Shown: positions 13,171 through 45,171, numbered from the stretch's first letter. The stretch is 64,000 nt of DNA from Euglena gracilis (GCA_039621445.1 CP154954.1:3415715-3479714), one strand, 5' to 3'. Program-made: numbers and translations. Notes: generated by a model from the letters alone, not told the origin.

Positions 13171-15502
13171 GGGGGTTTTCGGGACGCGGGGGGGACGCGG
13201 GGGGGGGACGCGGGGGGGGGGACGCGGGGAGAACACCTTCGGGATGTTGTTTAACGTAACTGGCCAGATTGGTTGGCCAGGTTTGGGCCAGATGTGCTGC
13301 CCAGTTTTGGGTCCAGCCCAAAACTGGCCACCAAAACAACATCAGAATGCACCAGAACACCATTTTGCAAACAAAAAGGACGGACAAACGAAACCTTCCA
13401 GCCTCTAGTCACAGCTACAAGAATCAGAAAATACAAACGTTTTCTCCGCAACGAATACAAAATGGAGCAGTTTTGCAGGGACATGCTCAGGTCCAGATTA
13501 TCAATCTTTCCAATGACTCATCATCATGTCCTTCCCATAAACTTCAACAACTGTGAGATTTATAGCAGAGAAAAATGAACATTCACTGGATGAACATTCA
13601 GAATTGTTTGGCAAACCTTTGTCATGGGGAGCTTGGCAATGCAAATCCGACTCAAAGTTTTCACCAATATCTCCTCAACATTCTTTCGCCTCATCTGTGG
13701 CAGGTTGTCACAGTGTTGTAGTCAATGACTTTCCCATAACGTCATTTATAAAGTTGAAGTCCACTTTGTAGCCTTGGCATCTGGGGAGAAGAGAATTTGG
13801 GTCAAAAAATCCTAATTTCGGGATTCTTGAAATTTCCGGAAATTTCTGGAAGTTTCCAATTTCCGGAAATTAAACTGATTTTCGGAAATTTGCCCAATGC
13901 CAGTATAGTATCGTATATAGTATAGTATATACCATGCCAGCCCCCCATATTGTACCCCCCCCATAATGTACCCCGCCATGGGGTACCCCCCAACCATGGA
14001 CCATGACCTTGGCCCCCCCCATATTGTACCCCCCCATGATGTACCTCCCCCCCAGAAAATGCCCCCTTGGGGGGGCGACAATTAGGGGGGGGTTACCCAT
14101 GGACCCATGGAAATGTGGGGTGAATTGAGTAACCCCCCCCTAATTGTCACCCCCCCTTATAGTCGCCAGGGGGGTCAAAACGCTCCCGGGGGGGTGCCAT
14201 ATAGGGGGGGAGTCACGTTACTCTACTATGGGGGGTCGACACACCCCTTCCCCCCCCCCTCACCGACCCCCTCGCCACGCCATTTTACCCCCCCTCCCCC
14301 CCCCTTTTCAGACCCCCTCGCCACGCCATGTCAGCCGCGCCAAAGAAAATTTTCTTGGAAAACTCCCGCGCACCCCTTGCCCCCCATCCGGGACCCCCTC
14401 GCCATGCCAAAAACCCCCCTCCCCCCCCCCTCCCTAGCCGGACGGCTCGCCACGGCGTGCCGACCCCCCTATATGCATACTATACACTATACTATATGCT
14501 ATACTATATACCATGCCCCCCGACCCGAGCTATTCCCGTCCCGGGACCCTTTCCGGCCTAATGGGAACAGTACGGGGGGGGGGACAGCTCGGGGGGGGAC
14601 CTAGGTCCCCCCCCGAGCTATTCCCATACCCGACCCTCGGGCAACCCAAAAGGGGTCATTTTGGCAACTTTTTGGATGTTCACAAAAAATAGTCAATTTT
14701 GTGCGCATTTGCCAAAATGTGATTTTTGAAAATGGTCCAAAAACTTCCATTTTTGACCACTTTCTTTGGAAGTTCTTTATAAAAAGTGCTATGACAGTGA
14801 GCTATTCCCGTACCCCCAATGGGAATAGCTCGGGGGGGGGGGGATAGCTAGGGGGGGTGCATGGTACTATACTATATGCTATGCTATACTATACTATACC
14901 ACCATTCCCCCCCATATTGTAACCCCCCTATCAGGGAGGGGTGACAAATAGGGGGGGGGTCACGTTATAGTATAGTACATAGGAGGCGGACGGACGGACG
15001 GACGGACGGCTGGTGAAAAAAGCGAAGGTCCGGACGGACGGCTGAAGTTGTGGCGTTGGTTGAGATTAAGACAGAGTTCATTTTCAATGGAAAGAATTCA
15101 AGTCAAAGACTCAATTAACAAAGTGGATTTGAATTGAAAGAAGTTTTGAGACTGACCAAGTGTTTTGAAGTCAATTGAAGGTGTGCCTTTTTTTCAAATG
15201 AGAAGTTTGTTGAAGATGCTTGAAGGTTCCTTTGCAAGCAACGGTTCCACCTTAATTGGTTTGTGGTACCTTGATGTTTCTGTTGTCCATGTTCTTGTGT
15301 GTTAGTTTTAAGTTTTTGAAGCTTTTTTGATGAAATTTGTGATGGTCAGTTTTGGACCGGTGGGTGATTTTGTTCCAAAAAAAAGCCAAAAATGGCCAAA
15401 AACGGGCAGTTTTTGCCACTTTTTGGGGGGTCACACGCACAAGTCGACATCTCTCTATTTATGAAAATAATTTTCATAAAAGTACACGGACGAGAATGGT
15501 AT

Positions 15503-15575
15503 CGCCCCGTGGCATAGTGGTTGTGTGGTTAGCGTGTGACCGGTAGGTCGCGGGTTCGAATCCCGTTGGGGGGCA
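15503..15575 (+). ncRNA. tRNA-like element (copy of 8302-8374)
   Basis: Same sequence inside the duplication. Confidence 0.65.
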
Positions 15576-16324
15576 AATATGTGCTGTTCAACGAGAAAAA
15601 TGTCAGTAAAATTTGACTGGGCCAAAAGTTTGTTTACTTTATTGACGTTCGTTTATTGCACCCCCTCCTCAAAAGTATGAGTTTTAAGGACGGAAAATTT
15701 TGAGGTCTTTTGTAAAAAAAAGTTTTTTTCCATCAAAAATCACGCGTTTTTGGGTTTTTCTTTTATTTTTATTATTTTTTCAAAAAAAATTTGGTTTCCC
15801 CGAAAACGGTGAAAACGTTGTGCTGGGTGTGGAGGGGTGTCGACTTACCCCCCCCTTCCGGTTCTTCCGGCGCAGTTTTTTGGTGCTGCCAAGAAATATG
15901 TTGCAAATGTTCATCCACCCGCAAAATAAACGGCCGCGTCTTGCGCAGCACCAGGAAAAACAGAAGGCAGGGACGATTTCTTAATGTGACGCGACGAGTG
16001 GAGGGAGGCCGTGACTGCTTTTCGGAAGGAAGGCAATTTTTTTTTTGGTCCGGCCGGCTGGCAAGACAGACATTGGTCCGGCTTGACGGACGGCTGGCGA
16101 AAAAATGCTTTGTCCGGACGGACGGCTGGGCGTCCAGCATTGGTCAGGCTGAAGAGGTCCGGACGGCTCGGACGGACGGACGGCCAGCCGCCCCCCTGGG
16201 ACGCGGGTGGGACGCGGGGGGGGGGGACGCGGGGGGGGGACGCTGGGGAGACGCCATTTTTGGGACAATGAAATTAGGAATTTTATACGAGAATTTTTTT
16301 GCCAAATTAGGACTCTAACAAACA

Positions 16325-16950: not shown

Positions 16951-17390
16951 CTATACTATACTATACTATACTATACTATACTATACTATACTATACTATA
17001 CTATACTATACTATACTATACTATACTATACTATACTATACTATACTATACGATACTATACTATACTGTACTACACTATACTATACTACACTATACTATA
17101 CTATACTATACTATACTATACTATACTATACTATACTATACTATACTATACTATACTATACTATACTATACTATACTATACTATACTATACTATACTATA
17201 CTATACTATACTATACTATACTATACTATACTATACTATAATATACTATACTATACTATACTATACTATACTATACTATACTATACTATACTATACTATA
17301 CTATACTATACTATACTATACTATACTATACTATACTATACTATACTATACTATACTATACTATACTATACTATACTATACTATACTATA
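16951..17390. repeat. (CTATA)n pentanucleotide microsatellite
   Basis: Direct reading; ~440 bp, almost perfect. Confidence 0.99.
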
Positions 17391-17937: not shown

Positions 17938-17987
17938 AAGGACAAGCAACCCCTATCAAGCACGCCATCGCCAAGCATCAGGAGCTG

Positions 17988-18285
17988 TGTCGGCCGCCGG
18001 CTTTCGCCGGCAGCCAAAAATTGCCAGAAAGCGCAAATTTCAAAGTCGCGGGTAACAGCCAACCAGTTAAAAAACCCCGCGACTTAAATTGGAAGCGGGT
18101 CAAACTAGTTTGCGCTTTCAAATTCGTCATTTTTCACAGAACTTGAGGGGTTTTCCCCAATATTTGGCAAGAAGGAATACTATTGTATTGAATTTGTCAA
18201 TTGGACTTTGATTTGAAGTGGCAAGTTGAGTTTCATTGTTGGTCATTAATCTATTGAAGTCATTGTCTTGAAGGAGCCTTTAACA
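17988..18285 (+). repeat. 5' LTR (end uncertain; candidate TGT...ACA end at 18285)
   Basis: 17988-18230 aligns by eye with 30629-30870, with many substitutions. No TGG-type tRNA PBS was seen after the candidate end. Confidence 0.75.
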
Positions 18286-18786
18286 CCACCGCCCACTCCT
18301 CTATACCACCGCCTTCGCCTCCATCACCTACCACTCCTTGCCCCAAGGTTTGCGCATTTCATACATTCACATTTCACAGTTTCGGTTTCAATTGTGTTCT
18401 CACTCAAGTTTCGGAGTTTCAGAAATCAAGTTTCTTTCAGTTTTTGACTTCAAGAGTTCAAGTTTCAGTGGGTTGGTTTTTGCCTACAAGTTGTGCGAGA
18501 GAGAAGTGAGATTTTCACACCAAATGGCAGATTTTTCGATTTTGAGCAAAATTTCGGAAACCGCAAAAAAAACGATCCTATGCACCGGCTGGGGTTGAGG
18601 AACCCACCTGGGTGAAAAAACGGTGGTTGACTTGAGCCCACCAACCCCCGGAGATAGCGCAGGCCCCACCCCGGAAACACCACCCCCCTGTCGGTGGTCC
18701 TCCCCACCGGCGAGGACCCCCCGGGGCCCTCGGCCCGAAGGGACTCGGCGGTCGCGGGGGCGACCGGCGGCCCGGGGGTGGCGGAC

Positions 18787-19070
18787 CCGGTGAACATGGT
18801 AGCAGAGGTTGGCTCACTGACTTCGTCAGTGAGGATTTTTCAGATCCGGTGAACATGGTTAGCAGAGGTTGGCTCACTGACTTCGTCAGTGAGTATTTTT
18901 CAGATCCGTTGAACATGGTAAGCAGAGGCAGTTTCACTGACTCTGTCAGTGAAAATTTTTCAGAAACGGTCAACACGGTCACAGAGGATTGTTCTGTTGG
19001 CTGTGCCAGCAGAATGGTACACGAGGGCAGTTTCACCAACCCAGTTGTCTGTGAATTTTCAGAAGAATAT
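18787..19070. repeat. ~60-bp tandem repeat in the element leader/gag region
   Basis: Unit CCGGTGAACATGGTTAGCAGAGGTTGGCTCACTGACTTCGTCAGTGAGGATTTTTCAGAT: three clear copies plus degenerate ones. Confidence 0.85.
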
Positions 19071-19363
19071 GCAGAAATCCGCATCCATTTTCAGGTCAAT
19101 CTGTCCGAGTTTCAGATTGTGGTGAAAATTTTCTGAGATCTGTGTCAGAAATCTATTTTCAGAACGAAAAGGAAACTGAGTTTTCTGCAGCCCAGTTTTC
19201 AGAATCTGTGGCATCATTGCAAATCGTGACGGAATCTGTGGCAGAAAACAATTTTCAGCCTGCAGAATTGTTATCGTCTTAAGAATTTTCAGAAACGACA
19301 CAGGAATCAGAATCTGATGCTGATTCGGGGAGGGGGTCAATTACATTCATAAGGCCCATCACG

Positions 19364-20910
19364 GTGGAAGGGCCAGAAAATTTACAGCTGGTTCCACTGC
19401 ACAGCAGTGACGAGGAACCAGACCCCCCAGCTTACGAAAGCGAAACAGAGGAAGAAAAACAGGCTGAAAACACAATAATTCAGGAAATGGTGATGCAAAG
19501 AATGAAAGCTGCTGGCATGTGGCCAGTAAATTTTTCAGGTTTTCAGCAAATTTCTGTGTCGTCACGAGACAGCAGCCCAGGGCCAGAACAAAAAATGTTG
19601 CGTTTAACAGCCCAGCCAGAACCATTGCTGTTAACACAGAGTTCAGAAACGCAGTCAGCACAGCCAGCTGCAGCCCAGCTGCAGGTTTTTCAGCCAGCCC
19701 AGCCGTTTTCGGCTGAGATGTCTGTCCCAGCCCGGATCCCTGGACAGGTTTTCACCCAGCCCAGCAGTTTTCGGCTGGGTCATCTGTCCCAGCAATCATG
19801 GGGCCAGCCCAGATGACTTCACAGGTTTTTCAGCCAGCCCAGCAGTTTTCGGCTGGGTCATCTGTTCCAGCAATCATGGGACCAGCCCAGAATCATGGGC
19901 AGGTTTTTCAGCCAGCGTTAACAGTGTCTTGAAACACAGGCCCAGCCCAGATTTTTCAGCCTATTCAGCCAGATTTTCCACAGACCCAGCCACAGAATTT
20001 ACAGCCAAACACCAGTTTTTCTGCAGAAACTGGGTCCGAAAACCCTGAAAATCAGCATGATGTGGAAATGGAATCGGGCTATGGCCAATCTGATGATGAT
20101 TGTAACAATTGGGGTGAAGAGATCAGTTGCAAAATTGAATGTTCACATGGCAGACTTTTGGTGCAGGAAGGAAAAAATCCTGAAAAAACGGCTGAAAATC
20201 TGGTGGGGGAGGCAGAAAACAGGCTAAATCGGGCATTGGCCATGTCACATGGGCAGACATTGAATCTGGTCAATGAGGCATTGGGCATGCATGATCAGCG
20301 AATGGCTGATCACATTGCCATGGTGAAACGTGACATTCAGGCTGAACTGAGTGCAACTGTGAACGACTTGCTTTTGCAGTTTCAGCAAAATGGTGAAATG
20401 GTGCAAAATCGGGCCCAATGCCAAAGGCATTTGTTGAGTGTGGAAATGGAACGGCAGTTTGCTGAAAAAGTTAAGAAAGTGGAGGATGGACTAAACTCGT
20501 TTTTTGAGGCCCAGGTTGAGGGGTTGAGAAAAAATGAGAGGGATTTTTCTCAGAAGCTGTCGATTTTGGAAAAATCTGTGGGGGAGATGCACGTGGTGGT
20601 GCAACAAGTGGGGGAGAAGGAAAAACAGCAGGAAATTGCTGTTAATCAGGTCAAATCTGCAGTCGGTGAGCTAAGCTCTGGTCTGGAGGGACGCTTTGGG
20701 ATCATTTTTCAGCAATGCAAAAGTTTGGGGGACACTGAGTGTGCCAAATTTCAGGCACAGGCTGAGAAATTGAAGGAATGTTCACAGTCCCTGGAGCGAG
20801 AGAGCAAAGCTCTGAATGATCGTTTGGGGAGGTTGGAGAATTTTCTGGGTCGGAAAGATTTTCCCATTGAAAAAGTCTGTGACCTGATTAACAAGAGCGA
20901 GGAAACAATT
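19364..20910 (+). pseudogene. gag-like region (Q/P-rich repeats then predicted coiled coil), interrupted
   Basis: ORFs 19364-19816 (QVFQPAQ repeats) and 20062-20943 (E/K/Q-rich heptad-like) lie between the LTR and pol. Assignment is positional only. Confidence 0.5.
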
Positions 20911-20911
20911 A

Positions 20912-21115
20912 CAGGAGGTCCTCGAAAAAATAAGGAGGGATGAGGCCCATGCCATCCTGGTGATCCCCAGGTGGCCGGGGCGGCGTTGGTACAGGGAGGC
21001 CAGGGGCTTGGCAGTGCGCCAAGTCACGTTCCCTCAGGGAACACGATTTTTCGGCAGAGGGGAGGAGTTGTGCCGGGGGACCAAATGGGCCATCACAGCC
21101 ATTTTGCTGTGTGGG
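20912..21115 (+). pseudogene. C-terminal half of a DIRS/Dam-type N6-adenine DNA methyltransferase domain
   Basis: QEVLEKIRRDEAHAILVIPRWPGRRWYREARGLAVRQVTFPQGTRFF...RGTKWAITAILL aligns with the complete domain at 28585-28985. The catalytic xPPW half is deleted at the junction with gag. Confidence 0.7.
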
Positions 21116-21277
21116 CACCCAGACCGGTGTACGCTGGGGGTGACACGAAGGGGGAGGGAGAAAAAATCCAGGTTCGGGACACATTTTTCAGGACCACCCC
21201 CAGGGACGGGGGGGGCCACAGGGGAGGTCAAGCCGGCACACCTGGAACAGGTGGGGAGAGCGGACCAGCCGAGACGG

Positions 21278-21750
21278 ATGCTGGACCTGTTCTGCGGGAC
21301 AGGTTCAGTAGGGACGTCTACCGCAGCCTGGGTTTCCAGGTTACGTCGGTGGACGTGAACCACAGGTGGCGGCCAGACATTTGTGTTGACGTGCTAAAAT
21401 AGAATTTTAAAAAACAGTTCCAGCCTGGGAATTTTGAGGCAGTGATGTGTGGGGTCCCCTGCACCGAATTCAGCCTGGCCCTGACCACCAGGGAACGGGA
21501 TTTAACATTGGCTGATAGGCTGGTGCTGCGGGCCTGGCTATCATCAGGTACCTCCGCCAACAGCGGTGGTGGCTGGAAAGCCCCCGGTACGGGTACCTGA
21601 GGACCCGCAGGTACATGGCAGGGATCCCACACGTGGACGTGGATTACTGCCGGTATGCAGACTGGGGCTACCAGAAGTCCGCCAGGGTATGGGGCAGCCC
21701 ACATGTCCTGGGTCTCCGGCCACGGGTGTGTGACGGCCGGACCCGCTCCA
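21278..21750 (+). pseudogene. C5-cytosine DNA methyltransferase (compact, virus-like family), with frameshifts and a stop
   Basis: Motif I MLDLFCGTGSV (21278), VTSVD, motif IV CGVPCTEFS (PC at 21457-21462), RDLTLADRLV, motif VI WWLESP, and VDYCRYADWGYQKSARVW (motif VIII region). Confidence 0.92.
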
Positions 21751-21914
21751 TCCTGGAAAGCCCAGGACCTGAGGGGAGACGAAAGGGACGGCACCCCTTG
21801 TCCGTGGCCACAGCACCGGCATCGGAGGCCCAGGCTGCTGTGTCTCCGGGGCCAGAGGGAGCCCAACGCGGTGTGCCCACGGTCCTGCTCCATGAGGTTG
21901 GGCAGGGTGCAAGG

Positions 21915-22200
21915 GAACGGCAGCTGCTGATGCGGGTGCAGACCAGGGGGCCAGACGGACAGTCCCACTTCATCAACGCCCTCATTGACACAGGGGCAGA
22001 GGTGAACCTGGTCCGAAGAGGCAAGCTACCCGGCTCATACCTCCTGCCTGCCCCCAAGCCCCTGTCTCTGGTGACCGCCAGTGGCGCCAAGATGGAAGGA
22101 GGGGAACGTGAGGCAACCCTAGACCTGGACCTCCGGCGGGAGGGGGGCCCGGGTCAGGGGGAGGATCCCTGTGGACGGCTTCAGCCTCCTTTTATTAGGA
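21915..22200 (+). pseudogene. pol: Retropepsin aspartic protease
   Basis: ALIDTGAEVNLVRRG...LVTASGAKM, in frame with the end of the C5-MTase (ORF 21615-22355). Confidence 0.9.
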
Positions 22201-22689
22201 TGACATCCACGTGGAGGCCATCATCGGCTTTCCGGAGGAATACCAGCTCGGGGTGTTTCCACACCTCGGGGCCCTGGCGGTCCTCCTTCGGGGGCATGAC
22301 ACGGAGGGTGGGCGAGTTCAGCCAGCAGCCCATAAAAAGGCATAAAAGCGAGTGAGATACCTGAAAACGGTGGAAAAAGTCAGAGCACTGCGGCTTGCTT
22401 TGCCCGCGGCAGCCCTTGGGGGAGGACAACGAGGAGCCTGAGTTGGAGGGAAAACCCCTGCGCGAGGATGAGGCAACCCAGGAGGCCGTAGTCAAGGAAC
22501 TCCTGCGGGCAGTCTGGGAGGTCAAGGCACGGGCAGCCCAAGGGGTCATCCTTATTCCCGAAGGGGAACAGGTGACCAGCCAGCGGGCGGAGGAGCTCCG
22601 GGCAGCCCTCAGGAGGTATTTTGAGGGGGAGGTTCTCCGAACCAGGATTTGGGGGGAAATAATCGTTCGGGGGCCCCTGGGGGAAGAGA

Positions 22690-24070
22690 AAATTGAATTA
22701 AAACCGTGATCTGTGGCAAAGAAACAGAGACCCATCCACCTGACCTGGGAGAGGCACAGAGCCTTGTGTGACCTGGCGGGTGAGTGGGTTCGTGACGAGA
22801 AGGTGGAGGAGGGGGTGCCAAGTGCCTGGAGCCGCCCCACGTTCGTGGCGGCCAAGAAACAGGGGAAGTGGCGTGGGGTTCTGGATTTCCGGGCATTAAA
22901 CGAGGCCACAGTGACGGATGCTTACTCCCTCCCCAGGATTGAGGACATCCTGGTGAACCAGGGACGGAGGTACCTGTTCTCCGTCCTTGTTTCTCAGGGA
23001 TGCCTTCCATCAGGTGCCCCTGCACGAAGGCTCACGCCCATCCAGCTGCTGCAGCACCTCCCGCGAGTCCAAGCAGTGGTGTGTGGTCGTGATGGGCCTG
23101 AAAAATGGAGTGGCCATTTTTCAGCGGGTAATCGACTACTCGCTGAGGGATGTGGCTGATGTCGACAACCAATACGTTGACGACGTCATCGTGGGGACAT
23201 AGTCGTGTGGCACGGAGGAAGCTACCATGGAGGCACACGACCAAGACATCAGGCGAGTGTTACGGGCACTGCGGGAACACCGCCTGGTCGTGGACAAGAA
23301 CAAGTGCCGCTTCTTCGTAAGAGAACTGGAGTTCTGTGGCCACATCCTGGGGGGAGGAAAACGGAGGCCAGCACCGGGCAAAGTCATGGCGCTGGATAAG
23401 TTGGAGGAGCCCCGCACGATCACAGCCCTCAGGGGCTTTCTAGGCTTCACCAACTACTACTCCAGCTACGTGAAGGAGTATGCCCATTATGCATCCTCCC
23501 TGATGGACCTCCTCAAGGTGGGACGAGTGGAGTGGAAAAAGGGGAGCAAAAAACCTGTGAAATTCCGCCAAGTGGAACGGGAGGCCTTCACCGCCATGAA
23601 GCAGGAGCTCCTCCGGGGATTGAAGCTCCACACCATCAACCCGGACCAGCCATTCATTCTCCGGGTGGATGCGAGCGACAAGGCGGTGGGGGCAGCCTTG
23701 GAACAGTTTTTGGAGCCAACAGAGGGGATGCACACAGCCATGGAAGCCACTACACGGAAAACCGTGCCTGTGGCCTTCTGCTCCAGGAAAATCCCGGCTG
23801 GACAGGTGAAGAGCTGGTCTCCGCGAGAGAAAGAGACCTACGCCGTCATCCTTGCCCTCCAAAATGGGCCTCCTACATCGGCCTGCAGCCGGCGTTGGGT
23901 CCTCACGGACCACAAGTCCCTGGTGGCCTGCACCAAGGAAACCCTGGACACGCCCAGCGGACCTGCCGGGAGGCGGGGACGCTGACATGAAATGTTCTCA
24001 CGGTTTGAACTTCACGTGGTCTATATCCCGGGAAAGGAAAATGTGGTGGCGGATGCCCTCAGCAGATGGG
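22690..24070 (+). pseudogene. pol: Ty3/Gypsy reverse transcriptase and RNase H, frameshifted
   Basis: WSRPTFVAAKK, KWRGVLDFRALN, YSLPRIEDIL, LRDAFHQV, VMGLKNG, YVDD (23173-23184), KCRFFVRELEFCGH, LRGFLGFTNYY; RNase H: RVDASDKAVGAALEQ, SPREKETYAV, LTDHKSL, ENVVADALSR. Confidence 0.96.
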
Positions 24071-24730
24071 CATATCCTGCCTCCAAGGCTTTTGCCGACA
24101 TCAGCCTCCACGGGAGCGGGGAGGATGATGAAGCAATGAGGGCCATGATCGAAGACGAACGGAGGGAAGAGCCGGAATGCGAGACACCGCACGGGGGGGG
24201 AGGAACTCCACGTGGCGGTAACAAAAAGCAGTGGGGGAGACACAGCAGCACAGCACGGACCTGGCCCCAGCCCCACAGAGGGGGAGAGGGCTGAGGATTC
24301 AGTGCCAGGGAGCCCTGACCCTGACCCCACAGGGGGGGAGGGGCCTGTGGACGCCCCCTTGGGAGATTCGGGTCCCATCCTCACGGGAGGGGAGGGGGTT
24401 GGGGTACCTGGGTTTGACACGCGGGTGACACGGGGTCCCCCTCGTGCCCATCTTTTCATGGATGAATTCGGGAATGAACAGCCGGCAAGAGGGGGGGAAC
24501 CTGAGGAACATCAACCGGGGGGAAGAGTTCTGAGTGAGGACCTTCAGCGGACCCCAACATCAACGATCCCCACGGAGGTGATCTTGGGGAACCTGAGGGG
24601 GAACCGATTTCATTTTCTCCAGACACGGGGGTGCACACCCAGGAAGAGGTGGATGAGGATCCCTCCATCCCAGTGATGGACAGGGATTGGTCACGGGCAT
24701 ATTAAAATTGCCCTGTGTGGCGGCCTGTTT

Positions 24731-25860
24731 ATGCAAATGCCTGCAGGAGAGTGGCCTGAGGGAGTCCGTCTGTACGAGGACAAAATGTACACGGACGGGA
24801 TCCTCTTTGTGCCAACCAGCCTGATGGGGCTCGTGGTCCGTGCCCACCACGGGGACGCAGGCCACCCAGGAGCCTCCAGGCTCTGGCACCAGATGGGGCG
24901 GTGGTACAGGTTCGCGGATCCAAGGGGGGCTGAGAAAATCACCCAAGGCATCCAGCGGCAATGTGAAATCTGCCAAGCCTGTGACCACTCTCGAGCACCT
25001 TTCAAGTGTGCTCTCGAAGCCACCCCTGTGCCACCGTTCCTCATGGACAGTGTGGCAGTGGACCTGTTCGACATGCCTGAGGTGACCCACGAGAGCCGAG
25101 TGTATGATTACCTGGCCCTGTGCGTGGACCGTGAGAGTGGGTGGACAGTGGCCACCCCCCACAAGTACAAGGGCCTGACAGCTGAGGTGGTGGCCAAGGC
25201 CATGTTCCGCTACTAGGGCATGTTCGGGGTGCCCTCTGTGTGACCTCGGACCGTGGCCCCCATTTTGCTTCGGCTTGGAGGCAAACAATGTGCGTCGCCA
25301 TGGGGGTGAGGCGTGCCTACGGGCAAGCCGACCACCACCAGGCCAACGGTCGGGCATAGGTGGCAGGCCAACGGGCGATGAACACCCTGTCCAAGCTCAT
25401 CGCTGACCTGTCGGAGAAGGAGGCCTCATGGGTGGTGCTGTTACCCAAGGCCCTCCGGCACCTGCACGATGTGCCAGGCTTGTCGCCCTACGAGGCGGTT
25501 TTCGGGCGGCACCGGCCACTCCAAGGCCTGCACCACCGGCCACCACGAGAGGCCGAGGTGGCAGCCGACTTCATGGCACGGATGCGGGCTATGGACGAGG
25601 AGGTGGCCTCAACCTTGAGTGCCTTGCACGCCAAACGGTGGGCTTCCATCAACGCCAAGAGAAGGGATCCACTTCCTCTGGAGGTCGGTGCCAAGGTGTG
25701 GTACCGTCCCGAGTCACAGCCGGGAACGGACAAGTTGGCCACCAAGTGGAAAAGGGGGACTGTGGTGGCCCGCCAGTGTCTACACTCATGTGTGGTGGAG
25801 CTGCCCCCGGGGGCCCGCCAAGAGACACACCGGAGCCAACTGAAGCTCTACGCAGAAGAC
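24731..25860 (+). pseudogene. pol: Integrase (HHCC zinc finger, DDE core), with stops
   Basis: AHHGDAGHPG...CEICQAC; SVAVDLF; TSDRGPHF; HHQANGR; GLSPYEAVFGR; VGAKVWY...HRSQLKLY. Confidence 0.93.
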
Positions 25861-25929
25861 GAGTTCTCCACCGAACCCTCCCAAAGTTCTATTTCAATCA
25901 CAAGGCGGCCACCCTGGAGGTGGGACCGG

Positions 25930-26110
25930 ATGAGTGGGTGGTGGAGGACATTGTGGGCAGCCGGAACCACCCGGAAACGGGGCTGCCGGAAATTCAGGTG
26001 AGGTGGAAAAATTGGGATCCGACGGATCTCCAATGGCTGCCATGGTCGGATTTCTTCCCATCCTACAACGAGGATGTGGTGGATTATTGTGCAGCCAAGG
26101 GGATTCCATT
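25930..26110 (+). pseudogene. Chromodomain at the integrase C-terminus
   Basis: EWVVEDIVGSRNHPETGLPEIQVRWKNWDPTDLQWLPWSDF fits the chromodomain pattern (aromatic-V-E-x-I...V-x-W-K-x-aromatic...W-x-P). Confidence 0.88.
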
Positions 26111-27699
26111 GGAGGTGGTGGGACTTCTCCGCCACGGGAGGAAAGGGGCGCGGGGTCGAAGGCAATAGGGGGAGGGTTTGAGGTGGATGCGGGAGGAAGT
26201 TGGGTGCGGGGACTGTGGTGGTGGCGGAGCACCCCTACGTCCCAGGCCCTGATTCTGATTTTATTTGTGCCTTGGCAGGTTCAACTTCAATTTCAAAATT
26301 CAGATTTCAAACTCCTGCGACCGCCCCTTGGCTACGGGCGTGGGGCCGGTGGCCCCAGAAGCCGGGGGCCTGGTGTCCCCCTCGGAAGGGAACATGATGC
26401 CCGGGCGGGGCGAGGAGGCCACACGAGTGCACGGGGGGGGTCCCATCCCCAAGGGCCCCTGAGGGTGCCAACATCCTCCCCCCCCAGGGCTGGCCTCCCC
26501 CAACACCCGCGGCCACAGAGCGCCCCCCGGCACCCACTCCCCGCACGTGCTCAACACCGCACGGTGCGGCCCGAGGGGCCCCGGGGGGGGTCCACAGGGG
26601 GCCCTGCGGGCCCGAGCCCCCCCCCACGGGTGCCTGCCGGGTTTTTTTTTTTTCTTTTTGAGCCATTCAAGGCGTGGTGCCCTGGCCAAAGGGGGGGGGG
26701 TGCCTGGGGCGGGGGGGCGGTGCACCTGCTATTTTGTTCAATGTTTGATGGTTGGCCACACCCCTCTTCGGCCCACCGTGCCGAGGGAGGGGGGGGGGCG
26801 CCTGCAATTTTCTTTTTTGGTTGCACCCCCCTCCCCGAAGGAGGGGGGGGGGGCGCCTGCCGTTTTTTTTTTGGTCTCCACCCCCCCTCGGGGGGGGGGG
26901 GGGGGCGATTTTAAAAACACCCCCGGCCAAGCTAACCCCCGGGGGGGGGGGCAGGAACCCCCACACGGAGCCAGGGGGGGGGGGCAGCCCCCAAGGGGGG
27001 GGGGGGGCGCCACCCCCTCGGGGGGGGGGGCAGCCCCTCACCGGCCCCCTCACGGGGGGGGCCCCACCTCAAGGCCCCCCGGCGGCGCCCCCCGGCGCCC
27101 CCGGGCGGGGCCCCACCCCGGGGGCTGGGCCGGGCAAGGGGCGGGCCTTCCAAATGCACAAACTGCCACCCCGGGCCAAGCGGGGGGGGTGGGGGAAGGA
27201 ATCACAATTACACCCGAGCATCGAGCGTTTCGGGGGGGGGGCGCCCCTACCCATGGGCCAAGAGGGCTCACGGGATCGGAAGGAGAGCGGAGGGGCCCCA
27301 AGCGGCGCCTCCCCGGGTCACGGGTCTGGAGGCGCCCGTTCCTCCTTCTCGCCCCTCCCGTGTATCCCCCTCCCCAAACGGCGCGCGCCACACACGGCAC
27401 GTGGCATCACCGCTTCGTGCGTTTCCACACAAAAAAATATAATTCTTTGGAGGCGGGAGAGCGAAAAGGGGAGGGGCGGCACCTCGGACCGGCAAAGGAG
27501 TCGAACTTAAATTGCACGGCAATTTTTTTGAGGAGGGGAGTGTGCGCGGTCCGAGGGCGCCCGCCCGAAGGGGGGGTCCCAAGTGGGCCCAAAGGGGCCA
27601 CGAAGGGCCGCAAGGGGGCTCCAAGGCCCCCACGGACCTTTTGAGACCCCACTGGCCCCCAAGGGGGCCCGACAGCGCATTTTGACCAAGCCAAGGGAA

Positions 27700-28560
27700 G
27701 GTAAAGGAGGAGGCAGGTTGAGAGGGCCAACAGGCAACCCCCAAGGGGATGCGCAGGCCCTGCTGGGCTTTGCGGAAGCAGCCCAGCTTATGATATATAT
27801 ATCATAGCTTATATATATATCATGATACACAGTTCCAGGGAGTCAAATGCATTTGGAAACCGGAGGGCCAGGTCTGCTAAGGCAGATCGGGCCAAGGCGT
27901 CCAGGACATCCTCCCAAACACGGTCAGCAAAGGGGGGCGAAACGGTGGCAAAACCGTCCGTTCGAAAATCAGATTCACAGGTGACAGCTCCTGCTACCAA
28001 CGCAAACGTGAACCCCCCCGTGCAAAATCAAGTGCCAGTGGTTCGATCACAGTCATTGCCACCCCCCCCAGCAAACTCAATTTGGCAATGGGGGTGAATG
28101 GAGAAATGATTCTGGGTGGAATTCAAATGCCAGCACCAATTTTCAGGGAGATCAGTGGTGGCACTGAAATCAACAGAATTTTGATTCACAGTCTTGTGAT
28201 GGCGAAGGCAAAGGCAAAGGCAAAGGCAAGGGCAAAGGAAACAATTCTTGGAGGAAAGGAAATAATGGAAATGACTGGTCTAGGGGAAAGGGCCAGGATG
28301 GTGGAAAAGGCAAAGGAAAAGGAAGGGGGAAAGGAAACCGATGCTAGGACAGCCGGGGTGGACCGTTGGGAGCGAGAGCCGCCCCGGGCTCGCATACCCA
28401 GCCCCACACAAAGACATAAGCAAATCCTAGGTGGCATGAGAAATCTCGTGCGAGTGAAAACACGATGAAAAATCTTCCATCCCGGGAGATCTCTGCGCAA
28501 GGTGTGTCCAGTGTGTCGTGTGTGTGTCTGCGTGACGTGCAAATCTGTGATCCAGCCCAA
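27700..28560 (+). pseudogene. gag-like C-terminal region (GKGKG-rich) of the second element
   Basis: A broken frame reads GEGKGKGKGKGKGNNSWRKG...GKGQDGGKGKGKGRGKG and lies upstream of the second MTase/PR block. Confidence 0.45.
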
Positions 28561-28584
28561 ATCTCTCCTGGAAGGGTTGCCTTC

Positions 28585-28985
28585 TATCAACCAACAAGGC
28601 CCACACCCCCCAACGGGTACCCCTCAAAATCCTCCCATCAGCCTCAAACAACTTTGTCCCCTTGGGAAAATAAACCTTTTTGACAGCCATAGCCACCAGA
28701 CTTTTCACCCACCTCCTATTCCTATTCCAGCTGGGAACAATGCACATGCAAATCGCACCGACAATTGGAAAATTTGTGCCCAATTTTTCAGACAACTTCA
28801 GGCAACAAAGTCCAGGGGGGGATCATCCACAACCGTCTTCCTCCACCCCACCAAATCCTTTACATGGCATCATCATCCTCCCGTAAAACTTTCGCACCTG
28901 GCATTTTGCTGTTGCAAAACAATCCAAAAAAAGTTGCCTTTGCAAAACAATACCGTTCCGCCTCTTTAACCCGATAATCCTTCTC
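28585..28985 (-). pseudogene. DIRS/Dam-type N6-adenine DNA methyltransferase domain (complete, frameshifted, on an inverted segment)
   Basis: Read across frameshifts: KDYRVKEAER / LFLDCFATAK-CQVRKFY / DDAM*RIWW...LWMIPPWTLLPEVV*KI / AICMCIVPSW...WVKSL...YFPKGTKLFE...RGTRWGVWALLVD. This is the DxFA...D...W...(N)PPW...P-x-W pattern. Confidence 0.82.
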
Positions 28986-29084
28986 AATTTCCTCCATACA
29001 AACTTTCCTAACAGCATAATCCTCCCTACGATATCCGCTTTTTCCGCCAGACACTTCCGTTCCAAAAAAACACCGGTTAACAAA

Positions 29085-29485
29085 TACTCCACCAGTTGTT
29101 TGGGCATCCTCCATTTTTTCTGAGTACCAACTGTCATTCCATATCCTCCCAACTTTTCTCGGTGACTCCTCCCCACAGAAATCAAATTCGGGCAAGTCTG
29201 GCCATCACAAAGTTTGTTTTGTAGCTTGCTCAGACTTTCGCTCCCCCAGATTCAGGTAGGCTTTTGATATCCCCAATCTGAAAACTGACAATAGTCAACA
29301 TCGACAAAAGTCAGATTTTGAACACAGGGTCTTTTCCGCAAAAGTCCATGCCGGGGATTTTCAACCCACCACCATTTTGGCTTGAAATATTCGACAATCT
29401 CCAAAGTTTTTTTGACCAGCCGATCTGCCCGCTCCAAATTTCTTACTCCCAATGTTTTGGCCAAGCTATATTCGGGAGGGGGCAG
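29085..29485 (-). pseudogene. C5-cytosine DNA methyltransferase, second diverged copy (motifs IV-X; motif I lost)
   Basis: PPEYSLAKTLGVRNLERADRLVKKTLEIVEYFKPKWWWVENPRHGLLRKR...VDVDYCQFSDWGYQKPT*IWGS...LCDGQTC...HREKLGG...KWRMPKQLVEYLL. Confidence 0.9.
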
Positions 29486-29574
29486 CCCCAGGGAAGAAAA
29501 AAATTGGTGCGGCTTAAAAAAAGAATGTTGAGGGGGACAAAAACTCGGGGAGGATCGAAGAAACTCGGGGAGGA

Positions 29575-29870
29575 CAGACAACTTCTGTTAAAAACCCAGA
29601 TTAAGTTGGCAAATGGGGAGGAAAAAAACGGCCAGAATTTTGATTGATACGGGGGCTGAAGGAAACCTCATTCGACAAGGGTTGATAGGGGACCACCTAA
29701 TGTATCCTGCTGAGGACCCGTTAAGGTTTGAAAATGCCAATGGGCAAATTTTGGCGGGGGGGAGCAGATGTGCAAAGGTAAAAATGACCCTTCAACAAAA
29801 TTGGAATGAGGAAAGGGAAATTGAGAGGGTTGAATATGAGGTTGAATTTTATGAGGCACCACAGTATATT
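29575..29870 (+). pseudogene. pol: Aspartic protease of the second element (pol truncated after it)
   Basis: RQLLLKTQIKLANGEEK / ARILIDTGAEGNLIRQG...FENANGQIL, homologous to RQLLMRVQTRGPDG...ALIDTGAEVNLVRRG at 21915. Confidence 0.88.
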
Positions 29871-30077
29871 CGCTGCCCGTTTGTTATATTGCCGTTCGCT
29901 GTCCCTCTTCCCATCCCTTCCCTCTCCATACCCCTCGCATTACGGTCACGCGGTGGTGTTATAAGGGTTCCTTCTCAAATCATTCGGATGTGTGCATGAT
30001 GATGGATTACACTGTGCATGGTAGTCCTTGGTCACAATATGAGCCCTCACACGGTTGGTTAAGGGGACGGAGTTTTG

Positions 30078-30345
30078 GACAAAAAACCCCCCGGCCCAAG
30101 GAGGGGGGGGGGGCGCCTTGATTTTTTTGGACAAAAAAACCCCCCGGCCCGAGGAGGGGGGGGGCGCTTGAATTTTTTGATAAAAATCCCCCGGCCTGAG
30201 GAGGGGGGGGGGCGCTTGATTTTTTTGGCAAAAATCACCCCGGCCCGAGGGAGGGGGGGGGCTTGACGAATTTGAACCAAAAATCTCCCCGACCCGAAGG
30301 GGGGCGCCAACCGAATTTTTACCAAAAAATCTCCCGACCCGTTGG
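30078..30345. repeat. ~42-bp tandem repeat in the element 3' region
   Basis: Unit approximately AAAAA-CCCCCGGCCCGAGGAGGGGGGGGGCGCTTGA-TTTTTT, 5-6 copies. Confidence 0.85.
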
Positions 30346-30617
30346 AAGGGGGGGATCTTGGTGAAGACCCTCATACCACCCGTGAGAAGCGGGGGGGGGG
30401 TGGCAGCTAATATTCATTGGTTGGTGAACCAAGTCTTTCCCAAAGGTTTGAAGGCACTTGAAAGCCATAGTCCATGAAGTTTGTTTCCCATTTGTTTATT
30501 CAAGGGAGAATGGGTGTGGGACATAGGCTTTGGATTAAAGAGTTCCGAATGGAGGATTTCCCCCCCGTTGTTGAGGAACGGGGGGGGGGCGAGTTTTTGG
30601 GGTCCGACTAAGGTCGC

Positions 30618-30628
30618 AAGGGAGGGGG
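30618..30628 (+). promoter_or_regulatory. Polypurine tract
   Basis: AAGGGAGGGGG abuts the TG start of the 3' LTR. Confidence 0.8.
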
Positions 30629-30870
30629 TGTCGGCCGCCGGCTTTCGCCGGCAGCCAAAAATTGCCAGAATGCGCAAATTACAAAGTCGCGGGTAACAGC
30701 CAATCAGTTAGGGAAACCCGGACTTAAATTGGAAGCGGGTCAAATTTCTAAGCGCCTTCGAATTTGTCTTTTTTCACAGACCTTGTGGGGTTTTCCCCAA
30801 TATTTGGCAAGAATGAATACTTTGAATTTGAATTTGGCAATTGGACTTTGAATTGGAGTTGCAAGCTGAA
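30629..30870 (+). repeat. 3' LTR, truncated by the LINE fragment
   Basis: Diverged direct repeat of 17988-18230. Confidence 0.85.
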
Positions 30871-32230: not shown

Positions 32231-32339
32231 TTTAAGATAATTTCAATTTGTGAATTTCACATTTTTTGTTGTTCAAAACGGAACCTGAAACAATGCTGTA
32301 GGCCAGGGACTATTTTGGCCCAGGCATTGATTACCCCCA

Positions 32340-32650
32340 AACAGTTTGTGAACTTCCCTTGGCAGGGAGGAACCACTAACATTTTCACCCCAGGTTTGGA
32401 CATTTTTGTTAATAGGAGCCACCATGAGCTTGAAACCCACATGTGGGTTATTAAAGGACATTTTACCTGTTTGTTCATGGAAAGTTTGGTGAGCCAGGGC
32501 ATTATGACCTTCCAGGGGGGGTGGGCATACACCTCCTGCACCCCATCCAGGCTGCAGTTGAGATCATCCAGCAGAAAGGCCTGGTGGTGGGTGCACCGGG
32601 AGCAAAATTTTGGGAACTGAGTGCGTTCTGTGGATGCAAACATTTCCACT
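32340..32650 (-). pseudogene. DIRS N6-adenine methyltransferase (MT) domain
   Basis: EMFASTERTQFPKFCSR...AFLLDDL...VYAHPPWKVIMPWLTKL...LITHMWVSSSWWLLL, immediately after RNase H (QWVPSEKMVADLL). Confidence 0.82.
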
Positions 32651-32905
32651 GAGTGGGTGACGTGTTCTAAAAAAAATCTGCATTATTTCTGAAAGCTGAC
32701 CGGGTTTAGGGTATAATCCCCCCTGTCTTGTGTGCACCTTGTCAAGGAGGTCTGCCACCATTTTTTCTGAGGGGACCCACTGGGACTTGGAGTTCAAGTT
32801 TGTTTTTTCAAGCACCACTTGAAAAGGGGGTGTAAAATTCTGTTTAGGTGCTCTTTCCTTCATTCCCATTTCTGCAGGCAGATGAGTGATACCTGATTGT
32901 CCACG

Positions 32906-33338
32906 TTCAGGTGTCTGCCGGAAAATTGAAAATCGTCAGAAAGGAACTGAGGAAAGTCGTAGGGCAGGTACGATCATACCGCCCTGTCCGTCCTTTTCTC
33001 AGGCTGGTCACACAAGGATTACTAAAATTGAGCAAGTTAAACACCGCCATGAGCTGGGATTTTGCAGTACCAATACCCCCCAGCTGAAAATATAAATCAG
33101 GAACCTCAAAGATTTTCTGGTGCCAGCGGCAGGTCGACCCTTTTTAAAAATACCCAAACATGTGCTGCCCTCAAGTTCATCAACGTGGGCCTGGTGTGGA
33201 GTGGAAAGCGCAAAAAAAGTTGTGCACGCAAGATTTTTGGAGGGAGCAAAGTTTGCTCCGCATAAATGTAAAGGAATTGGCTGTTGCAGTAAACAATGTA
33301 AAAGCTTTTGTAAAAAAGGGGGAGACTGTCCCACTGAA
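32906..33338 (+). pseudogene. Inverted internal DIRS segment (RT thumb and RNase H N-terminal part)
   Basis: Plus strand reads QVSAGKLKIVRKELRK...GRPF...SSSTWAWCG...QDFWREQSLLRINVKELAVAV...GETVPL; it continues as NVDNQVSL on minus below 32906. Confidence 0.85.
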
Positions 33339-33339
33339 G

Positions 33340-33900
33340 CCCCTCCTGCAGTTTGATGATGAACCCCAGGTGCTGCAGCTTTTGAGTGGGGGAGAGAATG
33401 GATTTCTTGAGCTTTATTTTGAAACCTGCAGAACAACGATTTAGGACCATCATGGCCAGTTGCCTTTTTACCCAACATCCTGAGGAACCACTTAGGATGA
33501 TGTTCGTCCAAATAAACGAATGCCATGAGCCCCTTTGGTCTCCAAAATTTTTGGAGTACTTTCATGAGGGACATGAAAACTTTTGGGAGAGTGCCTAGAC
33601 CAAAAGACGCACCTTGAAACTCCCACAGTTTTCCTCCTACCTCCATCCTTACAAATAGTTTAAACTTTTCTTGAAGGTCCAGGTGGACGTAAGCATCCTT
33701 GAGATCCAGATTTGAAGCATACCAACGTTGCATGAGGAGGGGAAAAATGGTGGATATTTTTCCAGGGTAAACCTGACTGGGGAACAATAAAGATTGAGTT
33801 ACCTTCGGTCTGCAATGACACGATGTTTCACCCCCCCTTCCGGTTTTGGCAACACAAACCATGGAACCAGATGTTTGGTGTTTTGTGGATCTGTCACCAC
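33340..33900 (-). pseudogene. DIRS-type reverse transcriptase
   Basis: WFVLPKPEGGVKHRVIAD; LDLKDAYVH; FQGASFGLGTLPKVF; VYLDE; KKSILSPTQKLQHLGF. Confidence 0.92.
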
Positions 33901-36900
33901 TCTGGTAGCTCTTGAATTTTTGTCAATCCTCCAAAATTTGTGTGGCCAATGAAATTTCTGGCTTGTTCTTTTGCTGGGGTAGGTGGAAAGTGAAACATTT
34001 GCAACACTTTGGGGTGAGCATGGGTTTTCCACAAGGGGAGACATCCCCCCAACCTCTGAAGAGACGGGACTCCTTCCATCTTTCTTCCTAACTCAGGATA
34101 ATCTTTAGCATCCTTTTCTCCCACTCCCCTGGCTGCTGCTGCAGGTTGGGGCCTTGGGCCCCCTGGTTGGGGCTGGTTGATGTTGAACGTGGGGTAGGAG
34201 CATCTTGCTCCTTCCCCAGCATGGTGGATTGACTTCTGTTCACCCCAAACTGGGGGCTGACTTGTACCCTCTCCAGGGGCCTGGATGTCAGGGCTTCCCT
34301 CTGCCCTTTGTTCTGTAATGGACCAGGAGGGAGGAATGAGATTTCACTGGGTGCCATACCCTTTGGATGTCCAGGGACTTCTCTAGACTTGGCTGCCATA
34401 GCCTCCTGTTCCACCCTTGAATCCTCCTTTGAACCCCTTAAATCCTCCTTTCAATTTCCAGCCTCGGCTGCCTGTGGGTGTGGTAAAATGCCACCATTCC
34501 ACCCTACCCACTGGTGTGTTCATACCAGCACTGTGCAGCTGCTCTGAAGCCTCTCCACCTGGAGGTCTTTTTTTGAAAAAAGAACATTTGCTCCACTTCG
34601 ACGCTTTCGTTCTCATAGAAGGCCTTGTTCTAACTCCGCCATGGCGAAGAAGAGTTGCTGGGAGAGGACTCGATAGTCCTCTGGGAATGCATCCACTTGA
34701 CTGTAGTTGGTGGCCATCATCCTCATCAAATGGATTACCTTTTGTTGTACCCCTTTGAGCGTCTTGTCAATGGGGGCCGTGGTGTCCTGGTTGTGGTTGT
34801 TGCCCTCAGCTCGCTTTTTTAGGTCCTGGAATTTCGGCCACTCGTTCAGGGCGTGTTTCCAGCGTAATCTTGTACCCACCGCCGCCTGCTTGCGGCAGGC
34901 CGACAGCTCCTGGAGAAGTGGGGTCAGATCCTCTTGCCAAAGGAGCCGCTCAGCTGTTTTCCCCGCCGCCACCTACTCCTCGTCCTCCTCGTCCTCCTCT
35001 GCCATCGCAGCGCTTGTCGCGGCCTTCTGCTTCCCCTTCTTCTCGGCGGTGGCGCCTTCCAGCAGCGTATGCCCACGTCGCGGCCAGCCTGAAGGCACAC
35101 TCTCCAGCTCTCTGGCAGTTCTCCAACAGCAGCAAGAAAGTACGGAATGCGCTGTTGTGCTTTGCTTCGTCTCCAGATGGTAAATACAGCATTGTGAAAC
35201 TCATTTTGTCGTTCGAAGGACGATTATGATCCGCCAACTCCGGCAACAAAAAGCAGTACGAAAGAACCCGCCAAAAAACAACGGCACAACAAGCCGGCAA
35301 AAGAAGCAGGACGTCACTCCCAGAGTGTGCGCAGCCGGTATGGTCTGGCCTGAAAGCCCTTTTGAGTCAACACTTCATAACGGCACTGGAAGCAGTGCCA
35401 AAATACCCTGGACAGGGGTATAAATGCATGGCTCTTGTAACTTGGTATTCCGCCGTGTTGTTTGGGTTTCTTTTAAACTAAATCCTACTGGGCAAAAAGT
35501 GCAAAAAGAAAAACATCCACACTAAACCTACTCCTCCATCCACGGAAATGCCTGATGCAAAACTTTCCAGCGAGATGACCCCACGCTGTGCGCAGGAAAA
35601 GGAGGGACTGAACCATGGAGACTGGGCCGAGAAGCTGTGAGAACTGCGCGCGCGGAGCACACTCCCTTTCCGCTGCCACACCGTATGGGGGGCAGTTCAC
35701 GTCAGGGGGGAAGTTCATGTCCTCAGTTAATGCAGCGGCGCACGCAATCGCAAGCAAGGAAGTCAAGGCGCAAGGCAGAGGAAAACGCCCGCAATGGCAA
35801 GCAGGGCAGCCAATTCGCAAGGCAGAGGAAAGCAACACAGACAAGCCCCCGTGGGGCGAACGAGGCAGGGGCCGTGGCAGGGCTGAACCGGCAGGGGTGG
35901 GCGGAGGGGGCGGGAGGACAATGTACAGAGGCAGCATCCGGGTGGCTGACAGGACCACTGGGCGGAGACGTTTGTGTTTGGCAGGTTGGCAGGACGACAC
36001 CATTGCGAAACCAAGCCCACCCGCCCCCCCCCCCCCGGGGGGTCAATTTCCGTTTCAAAAGACCAGGCAGTCACTTTTGAAACCAGTCACTCACTGCCCA
36101 CCCTCGGTGTCTCAGAAAAAGGCCGGATCAGGAATCCAATCTTTGGCACAATGCAGGCCCGTGGACCAAACCGTGGACAAATACCGGTCAGTCTGGGTCC
36201 ACGCCGGTGGGGTGGGGGAGAAGTTTAGGGGAACAGCAAGCCCGGCTCAGCTTCTGCCTGGGAGACCAATAGGGAGGGGCTGGGAGGTCCCAAGGTCTCA
36301 ACCTGGGGGGGTGCGTACGAAAACCATCGGCATTCCAACCACCGGTAATGTCCTCTTGTGCCACAGAAAACACAGCCAGAGTCACACAACCCCCTGGATT
36401 GCTCAACTCCGAAGAGCTATTCTGACAAAGGATGTCGTCCAATGGTCAATTTCTGTGCATAAAATCCGCAGCTCATTTGCACATAGAAAAAAAAACAGAC
36501 CAGAAGGCTAAAACTTCAAAGCCAACATCACGGGGGTATGCAGGTACACAACCAACCAATGTGCACACTCCGCAACTTGAGATTGGGCCACTTGCATTCG
36601 ATCTCTGTTTGAGACCTCGGGGGATTACGGGACCATCTCAGAGCAGGGCTGGGAGTCAATTCAGTTTGGGAACAACACAGCCCGTCCGGGAAGCCCCTCC
36701 GGGAAGTTTGTGCACGCCCATGCGTACTGGGCATGCACATTGGGATATAACTTGGGTATGCATGTGGCCTGTACATGCAGCGTACATGTGTACACATCAC
36801 CAGCGCCATGTGTACACCTGTGGAAATATGACAGCGTGCTGGCGCCAGAACGGGTCCCCGCTGAAAGCGTCCGGAAGGGCCAAGAGGCACTGGAGTGGTG

Positions 36901-43954: not shown

Positions 43955-44330
<376 letters not shown>

Positions 44331-45039: not shown

Positions 45040-45066
45040 TATATATCTATATATGTATATATATGC

Positions 45067-45099
<33 letters not shown>

Positions 45100-45171
45100 C
45101 GTATATGTATATGTACATGTGTATGTATATGTATATGTATACGTATATGTATATGTATATGTATATGTATG

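Follow-up and report, generated by a model that had tools for sequence, protein, structure and literature searches.

Opposite orders of predicted cytosine and adenine methyltransferase domains in two decayed retrotransposon copies of Euglena gracilis

The stretch of Euglena gracilis DNA analysed here (64,000 nucleotides, GCA_039621445.1 CP154954.1:3415715-3479714; the window) is eukaryotic and repeat-dense. It very probably holds two decayed retrotransposon copies that represent separate lineages within a single group of Ty3/Gypsy chromovirus-type long terminal repeat (LTR) elements, whose polyproteins carried a C5-cytosine methyltransferase (MTase; C5) and a Dam-like N6-adenine MTase (Dam) beside the aspartic protease (PR), in the order Dam-C5-PR-... 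in the first (element 1) and C5-Dam-PR-... in the second (element 2). Both MTase orders are genuine lineage traits. The features of the two copies, counted from the first letter of the window, are the following.

20825..21127, plus strand: element 1, Dam remnant, recognisable by family hidden Markov model (HMM) and alignment only in its C-terminal half, NPPW lost
21269..21812, plus strand: element 1, C5-cytosine MTase with LDLFCGTG, VPCTEFS, ESP and DVDYC..DWGYQK, scattered across three frames
21912..22142, plus strand: element 1, aspartic protease with LIDTGAE, by family HMM
22563..24186, plus strand: element 1, reverse transcriptase (RT; YVDD) and RNase H, 62-74% identical to the homolog P0073
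24685..25857, plus strand: element 1, integrase with zinc-binding part, core and C-terminal part, by Pfam and alignment to relatives
25851..26117, plus strand: element 1, chromodomain region, by Pfam Chromo and alignment to the chromodomain end of the homolog P0066
28568..29473, minus strand: element 2, inverted 5' block of about 906 bp with the C5 and Dam remnants, by read joints between 28567 and 29478 on opposite strands, loose ends at 29473, and HMM matches
29075..29473, minus strand: element 2, C5-cytosine MTase remnant, beginning after the catalytic Pro-Cys, ENP and DVDYC..DWGYQK kept, one in-frame TGA
28577..29042, minus strand: element 2, Dam-like N6-adenine MTase remnant with DCFA, IPPW, VPSW, FPKGT and RGTRW, two stops and at least one frameshift
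29478..29858, plus strand: element 2, Dam-PR linker and aspartic protease with LIDTGAE, ending at 29858

Element 1 (20825-26117, plus strand) has the order Dam-C5-PR-RT-RNaseH-integrase-chromodomain, the chromodomain being a probable one. Family HMMs for C5, Dam and PR, built from database homologs, place its first three domains on the plus strand in the N6-C5-PR order given by the initial annotation, which was made from the sequence alone. The Dam match covers model positions 62-128 (20903-21106), with the N-terminal half and NPPW missing, and the C5 match extends over 21278-21806. Several frame changes and at least seven stops fall within the alignments to P0073. In element 2, which comprises about 1.29 kb (28568-29473 inverted and 29478-29858) set among other repeats, the same HMMs locate C5 positions 48-198 at 29518 to 29078 (minus strand, E 1e-63), Dam positions 1-130 at 29024 to 28586 (minus strand, two frames, E 1e-20 and 4e-12) and PR at 29564-29858 (plus strand, E 6e-28). 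The minus-strand frame from 29587 to 28427 has two internal stops, and one base is missing at each of the positions 29497 and 29622 in most other copies of element 2. The initial annotation had described a C5-MTase followed by a complete N6-MTase on an inverted block at 28585..29870. The order and the inversion hold, but the read joints set the extent of the block at 28568-29473, and the N6 domain is complete in coverage only: besides the stops and frameshift listed above, its catalytic NPPW is changed to IPPW (Asn to Ile). Both window copies are pseudogenes, and neither can be functional.

The two elements can be matched to each other at the protein level only. In the comparison within the window by tblastn, Dam of element 1 (20945-21304) corresponds to 28756-28397 of the minus strand with 26% identity over 122 amino acids (E 1e-9); C5 corresponds in two parts, 21418-21525 with 29518-29414 (minus strand, 47% over 36 amino acids) and 21534-21812 with 29404-29123 (minus strand, 43% over 94 amino acids, E 1e-20); and PR at 21981-22139 corresponds to 29640-29798 (plus strand, 42% over 53 amino acids, E 3e-7). 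No nucleotide similarity between the elements was found by blastn at E<=1e-3. The heavy nucleotide divergence noted initially is thus borne out, as is the lower content of guanine and cytosine (GC) in element 2 (0.475 at 28-30 kb versus 0.55-0.62 at 20-26 kb), and the motifs described as shared (VDVDYC..DWGYQK, FPxGTxxF, RGTxW, RQLL...LIDTGAE) are all present.

The assignment of the two MTases is derived from their homologs, which exceed the curated Pfam cut-offs for PF00145 DNA_methylase and PF05869 Dam (for the latter, P0015 with 50.2 bits and P0004 with 49.4 bits at a cut-off of 28.1). The C5 domain is about 200 amino acids long, and Pfam alignments reach profile positions 2-150 of 324. The C5 structure model (P0008, 26-row alignment) was obtained with a predicted local distance difference test (pLDDT) score of 85.5, and its top Foldseek matches are the catalytic domains of DNMT3A/B/C, DNMT1, MET1 and DIM2 (E 2e-8, probability 1.00, template modelling score ~0.5). 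Comparison of the alignment A4 with the PDB as a sequence profile gave only weak matches to generic S-adenosylmethionine (SAM)-dependent MTases and DNMT1 (E >=0.024). The catalytic PC is kept in 87 of 89 homologs, ENP in 86 of 92, the SAM-binding motif I, by our own pattern, in 68 of 80, and NPP[W/Y/F] of Dam in 29 of 31. The N6 and C5 parts might also have been two halves of a single C5 enzyme after circular permutation; this was rejected, since the two parts match different Pfam families in intact homologs.

A search with the read-through peptide yielded 95 homologs (63 of similar length and 32 longer; P numbers in the text), in which the domains were mapped with the homolog-built HMMs. Both MTases are present in 34 of them, C5 being first in 18 and Dam in 16. 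The orders are distributed as follows: C5 only, 33; C5-PR, 10; C5-PR-RT, 8; C5-Dam-PR-RT, 7; C5-Dam, 6; PR-C5, 6; C5-Dam-PR, 4; PR-Dam-C5, 4; Dam-C5, 4; PR-Dam-C5-RT, 3; Dam-C5-RT, 3; C5-RT, 2; and one each of Dam-C5-PR-RT, Dam-C5-PR, C5-PR-Dam-RT, Dam-PR-RT and PR-C5-RT. The C5-Dam-PR-RT order is carried by seven long open reading frames (ORFs; P0066-70, P0078, P0083), and C5-Dam-PR by four shorter ones; these 11 uninterrupted relatives have the same order that is obtained when the block of element 2 is turned back, as was done in the initial annotation. The order of element 1, Dam-C5-PR(-RT), is found in P0073, P0074 and P0191, P0073 being Dam-C5-PR-RT-RNaseH over 1,443 amino acids. The full-length relatives of the two subfamilies therefore differ in order, the sharing of one order having been the outcome that would speak against the initial proposal. 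Uninterrupted ORFs of 1,440-1,911 amino acids run C5-Dam-PR-RT-RNaseH-INT-chromo, with INT for integrase (P0066, P0068-70), or PR-Dam-C5-RT-...-chromo (P0072, P0079). The full pol set of PR, RT, RNase H and DDE integrase is present in P0066, P0069, P0070, P0072 and P0079 as well as in element 1, and element 2 retains only PR. Relatives pass the Pfam Chromo cut-off; element 2 ends before the chromodomain region.

With P0062 as the query, a HMMER search of 1.84 billion representative sequences extended the survey and gave 892 matches at E<=0.001. A further 150 proteins were mapped, of which 148 were new from the best 150 of the 892 and two came from a word search, for Dam only, among longer proteins. 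Dam alone was found in 116 of the 150. The remainder contribute Dam-C5-PR (P0191), Dam-PR-C5 (P0149), PR-C5-Dam (P0227), PR-Dam-RT (P0206, P0241) and others. All six orders of the three domains have been seen: C5-Dam-PR, Dam-C5-PR, PR-Dam-C5, PR-C5-Dam, Dam-PR-C5 and C5-PR-Dam, the last in P0091. This protein (1965 amino acids) has a histone-mRNA stem-loop-binding domain between PR and Dam (Pfam SLBP_RNA_bind, E 6e-23); we know of no report of such an accessory domain in a retrotransposon.

The initial annotation had suggested a comparison of domain order with an RT tree, and the order does follow the RT lineages. A quick IQ-TREE analysis of RT and RNase H was carried out for the 26 of the 95 homologs with more than 150 amino acids of RT, with support from the Shimodaira-Hasegawa-like approximate likelihood ratio test (SH-aLRT). 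It gives one clade of 16 C5-(Dam)-PR-RT rows (SH-aLRT 100) and one of eight rows in which the MTases lie between PR and RT (SH-aLRT 99); P0073 and P0091 stand outside both. The RT of element 1, with X at the breaks, pairs with P0073 (65% identity, SH-aLRT 90). The C5 tree (54 homologs and the two window copies; the 33 C5-only rows and rows with less than 160 amino acids of C5 were left out) has the same backbone as the RT tree. The Dam tree (27 homologs and the two window copies) shows two deep clades with support of 100/99 each in the careful run. One unites element 1, P0028, P0073 and P0074 (Dam-C5-PR) with P0078, P0083 and P0091; P0078 and P0083 have the C5-Dam-PR order and their RT lies in the 16-row clade, yet their Dam belongs with the Dam-C5-PR lineage. 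The other contains the principal C5-Dam-PR group, to which element 2 belongs (its Dam groups with P0095, SH-aLRT 91), together with the PR-Dam-C5 group. The Dam tree is in conflict with the RT and C5 trees, and it therefore appears that Dam has passed from one backbone to another, C5 remaining with its own. C5 and Dam are not one cassette: C5 tracks the RT backbone and Dam does not.

It could be supposed that Dam never moved alone and that a single cassette had its internal order swapped as a unit, for example through a tandem C5-Dam-C5-Dam whose outer halves were then lost (circular permutation). Such a swap would agree with the adjacency of Dam and C5 in 33 of the 34 homologs with both (in the exception, P0091, 483 amino acids lie between them) and with the tight and uniform linker of 13-19 amino acids where C5 precedes Dam; where Dam precedes C5 the linker has 45-133 amino acids. 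However, approximately unbiased (AU) tests reject a common clade of the Dams that follow C5 (p 2e-6) as well as one of those that precede it (p 0.0066), in line with the conflict between the trees. Moreover, 18 C5-PR(-RT) ORFs lack Dam, and P0206 and P0241 are PR-Dam-RT without C5. A swap of the whole cassette is thus unlikely. The conserved, shuffled two-MTase module under selection that had been postulated initially should accordingly be divided: selection on the predicted MTases is supported by the uninterrupted ORFs and the kept catalytic motifs, but a single cassette does not stand.

The reading of element 2 as a C5-Dam-PR copy depends on the inverted block and the plus-strand protease belonging together. 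The block ends and the protease piece starts at neighbouring residues of the same homolog: residues 1-270 of P0002 align to 29437 down to 28577 (minus strand) and residues 279-399 to 29495-29858 (plus strand). The closest named relative, P0095 (EukProt EG_transcript_113; EG_transcript_20987 is also among the nearest named), shares 66% identity with element 2 over 362 amino acids and 73% with its Dam (118 columns), and runs without loss across the junction where the minus-strand block ends (28567) and the plus-strand piece starts (29478). Logan contigs of four public runs were placed on the region. In each of the four, contigs (6, 4, 4 and 1) connect 28567 with 29478 across opposite strands; this corresponds to the canonical layout on a single strand in other copies. 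Contigs departing at 29473 carry on into an intact motif IV Val-Pro-Cys-Thr (VPCT), and those departing at 29858 extend the protease as in P0002 and P0095. Because the pieces abut exactly in P0095 and in the one-strand contigs of the four runs, element 2 is a single copy in which the 906 bp at its 5' side have been turned round in situ. Natively it reads C5-Dam-PR, as a fragment from a lineage with the order C5-Dam-PR-RT-RNaseH-INT-chromo.

Both outer ends of element 2 are cut by other repeats. The contigs of the left flank depart at 28564 into different sequence, and the DNA left of 28568 therefore behaves as another repeat. C5 motifs I-IV are cut away from the copy; the missing N-terminus (motifs I-III) was sought on both strands of 27600-28700, where the best score was 18.5 bits compared with 17.7-24.3 in 24 control stretches. 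A plain two-break inversion that kept the upstream part is accordingly unsupported. The gag-side N-terminal parts of 33 homologs gave nothing below E 0.006 against 26200-28600 and 18200-20950, and a search for inverted repeats or microhomology around the breakpoints produced nothing convincing (best pair: 17 nucleotides with 82% complementarity). LINE-1 copies that are both 5'-inverted and 5'-truncated are known from "twin priming". Element 2 may resemble them by analogy: between the inverted upstream segment and the one that follows it in the source, nothing has been lost. Unlike them, element 2 comes from an LTR element, is also cut on its 3' side and has no poly-A.

Several points weigh against the interpretation of the window as two lineages with opposite MTase orders. 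Significant Pfam MTase matches are absent from the window's own ORF pieces, and the identity of the window MTases is deduced through the family HMMs and homologs. The Dam structure model is of low confidence (pLDDT 40.3), which leaves the Dam assignment a prediction from sequence. Eukaryotic Dams expressed in E. coli deficient in dam brought no rise in 6mA (N6-methyladenine), according to the main text of a preprint (Fernandez-Moreno et al., bioRxiv 10.64898/2026.05.21.726589). The blastn self-comparison revealed no direct repeats flanking 19-27 kb that could be LTRs of element 1; since the copies are old, decayed LTRs are compatible with this missing signal. The deep nodes of the C5 tree have SH-aLRT of only 82-87, the AU groups were named after the quick tree had been seen, and three of the rarer orders each come from a single database ORF. 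Finally, no independent contig among those listed bridges the right junction of the window copy (29473-29478), and the run X1, which has a 122-nucleotide contig across the left junction with 0 mismatches, may be the sample behind the window assembly.

The last two points bear on whether the inversion could be an artefact of assembly, the repeat being of very high copy number (summed contig depth in the hundred-thousands). The contig of X1 across the left junction speaks against this; as X1 is possibly the source sample, it is not independent support. We regard an artefact as quite improbable. A still weaker proposal is that the opposite order is private to the damaged copy, the subfamilies natively sharing one order: element 2 is visibly rearranged and shortened, but the two sets of relatives with different orders, together with the canonical copies that join the Dam end to the linker and PR in every run, already contradict it, and it can practically be discounted. 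Hardly more credible are two different insertions, a minus-strand MTase block and a plus-strand protease meeting head to head in a patchwork of repeats, as both pieces are closest to P0095 and are read through there without loss.

With two lineages of opposite MTase order as the preferred reading, a mechanism can be proposed. The short DNMT-type C5 MTase would be an old resident of this retrotransposon group, and Dam would have arrived or been replaced repeatedly, on one flank of C5 or the other, probably through recombination among elements present together. Selection may have retained both enzymes because, once freed from the polyprotein, they would mark the element's own DNA; position-independence fits domains acting as separate cleavage products. 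The 5mC (5-methylcytosine) would match the default CG-methylated genome and the 6mA would match permissive chromatin, as proposed in the main text of the preprint (10.64898/2026.05.21.726589).

Retroelement polyproteins normally keep a fixed succession of domains. In the present case, two epigenetic "writer" domains stand in different orders in sister lineages, both within 10 kb of one genome, and frequent recombination between co-resident elements is indicated. The catalytic residues are kept by uninterrupted relatives in every arrangement, which argues that both MTases are useful to the element, not passengers, and act independently of position. Somewhat more tentatively, one chromovirus clade may hold all six C5/Dam/PR orders in uninterrupted ORFs, with Dam swapped between backbones at least twice. 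If so, this clade would represent an unusually plastic exchange of accessory domains in retroelement polyproteins, and each MTase would work as a free-standing cleavage product that is selected wherever it is placed. The relatives also offer natural permuted constructs for testing how an element benefits by placing 5mC and 6mA on its own DNA, a question left open in the main text of the preprint.

A number of other features were observed in the window. An uninterrupted ORF of 336 amino acids (19933-20940, plus strand) with weak, sub-threshold Pfam matches, mostly to coiled-coil-type families, lies directly upstream of the Dam remnant of element 1 and overlaps, in another frame, the expected site of the missing N-terminal half of Dam; a gag-like ORF is one possibility, an unrelated insertion another. 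A 245-bp direct repeat (17987-18229 and 30628-30869, 88.5% identity) brackets both elements, and its similarity ends abruptly on both sides. It is the sole repeat pair around the elements in the blastn self-comparison and may represent either a dispersed repeat of small size or what is left of the LTRs of an outer element. Between and after the elements lie GC-rich stretches (26200-27650 and 30000-30400; GC 0.66 at 26-28 kb) with G-, P- and R-rich six-frame translations, part of 26825-26910 being similar to 30086-30169 (74%). On the minus strand, in the parts 32257-32682 and 33008-33922, an ORF has EMFAS..AHPPW..W-SSSWW with Dam-like spacing. Its support as Dam is weak (hhalign against the Dam alignment E 0.02, probability 2.4%; Dam HMM E 0.18), and immediately upstream of it is another ORF, with a weak match to RT (Pfam RVT_1 E 8e-4, below cut-off); this may be a decayed DIRS-like element with a Dam of its own. 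The first 16 kb contain large direct and inverted duplications of 96.5-98% identity (1-2257 and 11010-13260; 5520-7310 and 15060-13258; 7860-8998 and 15060-16195), and related short-period tandem arrays are found at four sites on both strands (9009-9277, 16951-17390, 43903-44328 and 45040-45249).

Retrotransposons of this kind were named EpiLTRs in May 2026: chromovirus-like elements with Dam, DNMT and chromodomain, described from Euglena gracilis and Cymbomonas (Fernandez-Moreno et al., bioRxiv 10.64898/2026.05.21.726589). According to the main text of that preprint, the Dams of Euglena form two strongly supported clades, with suspected domain exchange; the EpiLTR DNMTs of both groups are sister to DNMT4; the LTR-borne Dams derive from DIRS elements; and the Euglena genome is heavily CG-methylated, with 6mA at a subset of promoters. 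The Euglena EpiLTRs share with the window elements the Ty3/Gypsy chromovirus-like backbone, the Dam-like MTase and the DNMT, and have a chromodomain of which element 1 carries a probable counterpart. By domain set the window elements fit this class, the chromodomain of element 1 scoring below the Pfam cut-off (19 bits, E 0.0013; cut-off 25.1) and its LTRs not having been found. The words "domain order", "protease" and "shuffl" are absent from the main text, and the text consulted describes neither opposite MTase orders nor further permutations nor a tie of order to RT lineage; Fig. 2B or the supplements may show such architectures. A full-text literature search produced no further paper on this element class. 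The EpiLTR of Cymbomonas tetramitiformis likewise unites Dam, DNMT and chromodomain in one chromovirus, but its DNMT, as described in the main text, is located at the 3' end of pol, whereas here the MTases lie at the 5' end beside PR or, in relatives, between PR and RT.

Among other retroelements, SymbioDIRS-Dnmt3, SymbioLINE-Dnmt and the charophyte Dnmt3 retrotransposons also carry a C5 DNMT. SymbioDIRS-Dnmt3 provides a precedent for shuffled order, with two coexisting structures that differ in the order of the Pol domains (de Mendoza et al. 2018, PMC5890265). Unlike the window elements, SymbioDIRS-Dnmt3 and SymbioLINE-Dnmt of Symbiodinium are described there with DIRS and LINE backbones and with Dnmt3 or an orphan DNMT that has no Dam partner (PMC5890265). 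DIRS elements with a Dam-like "MT" domain share the PF05869 family and the NPP-aromatic catalytic motif; they differ in having a tyrosine recombinase, where element 1 and its relatives have a DDE integrase (rve / Integrase_H2C2) and element 1 also has the chromodomain region. The EpiLTR class itself is thus already known; added here are the coexistence of both MTase orders, each a trait of its lineage, a broader series of permutations and the independent history of Dam.
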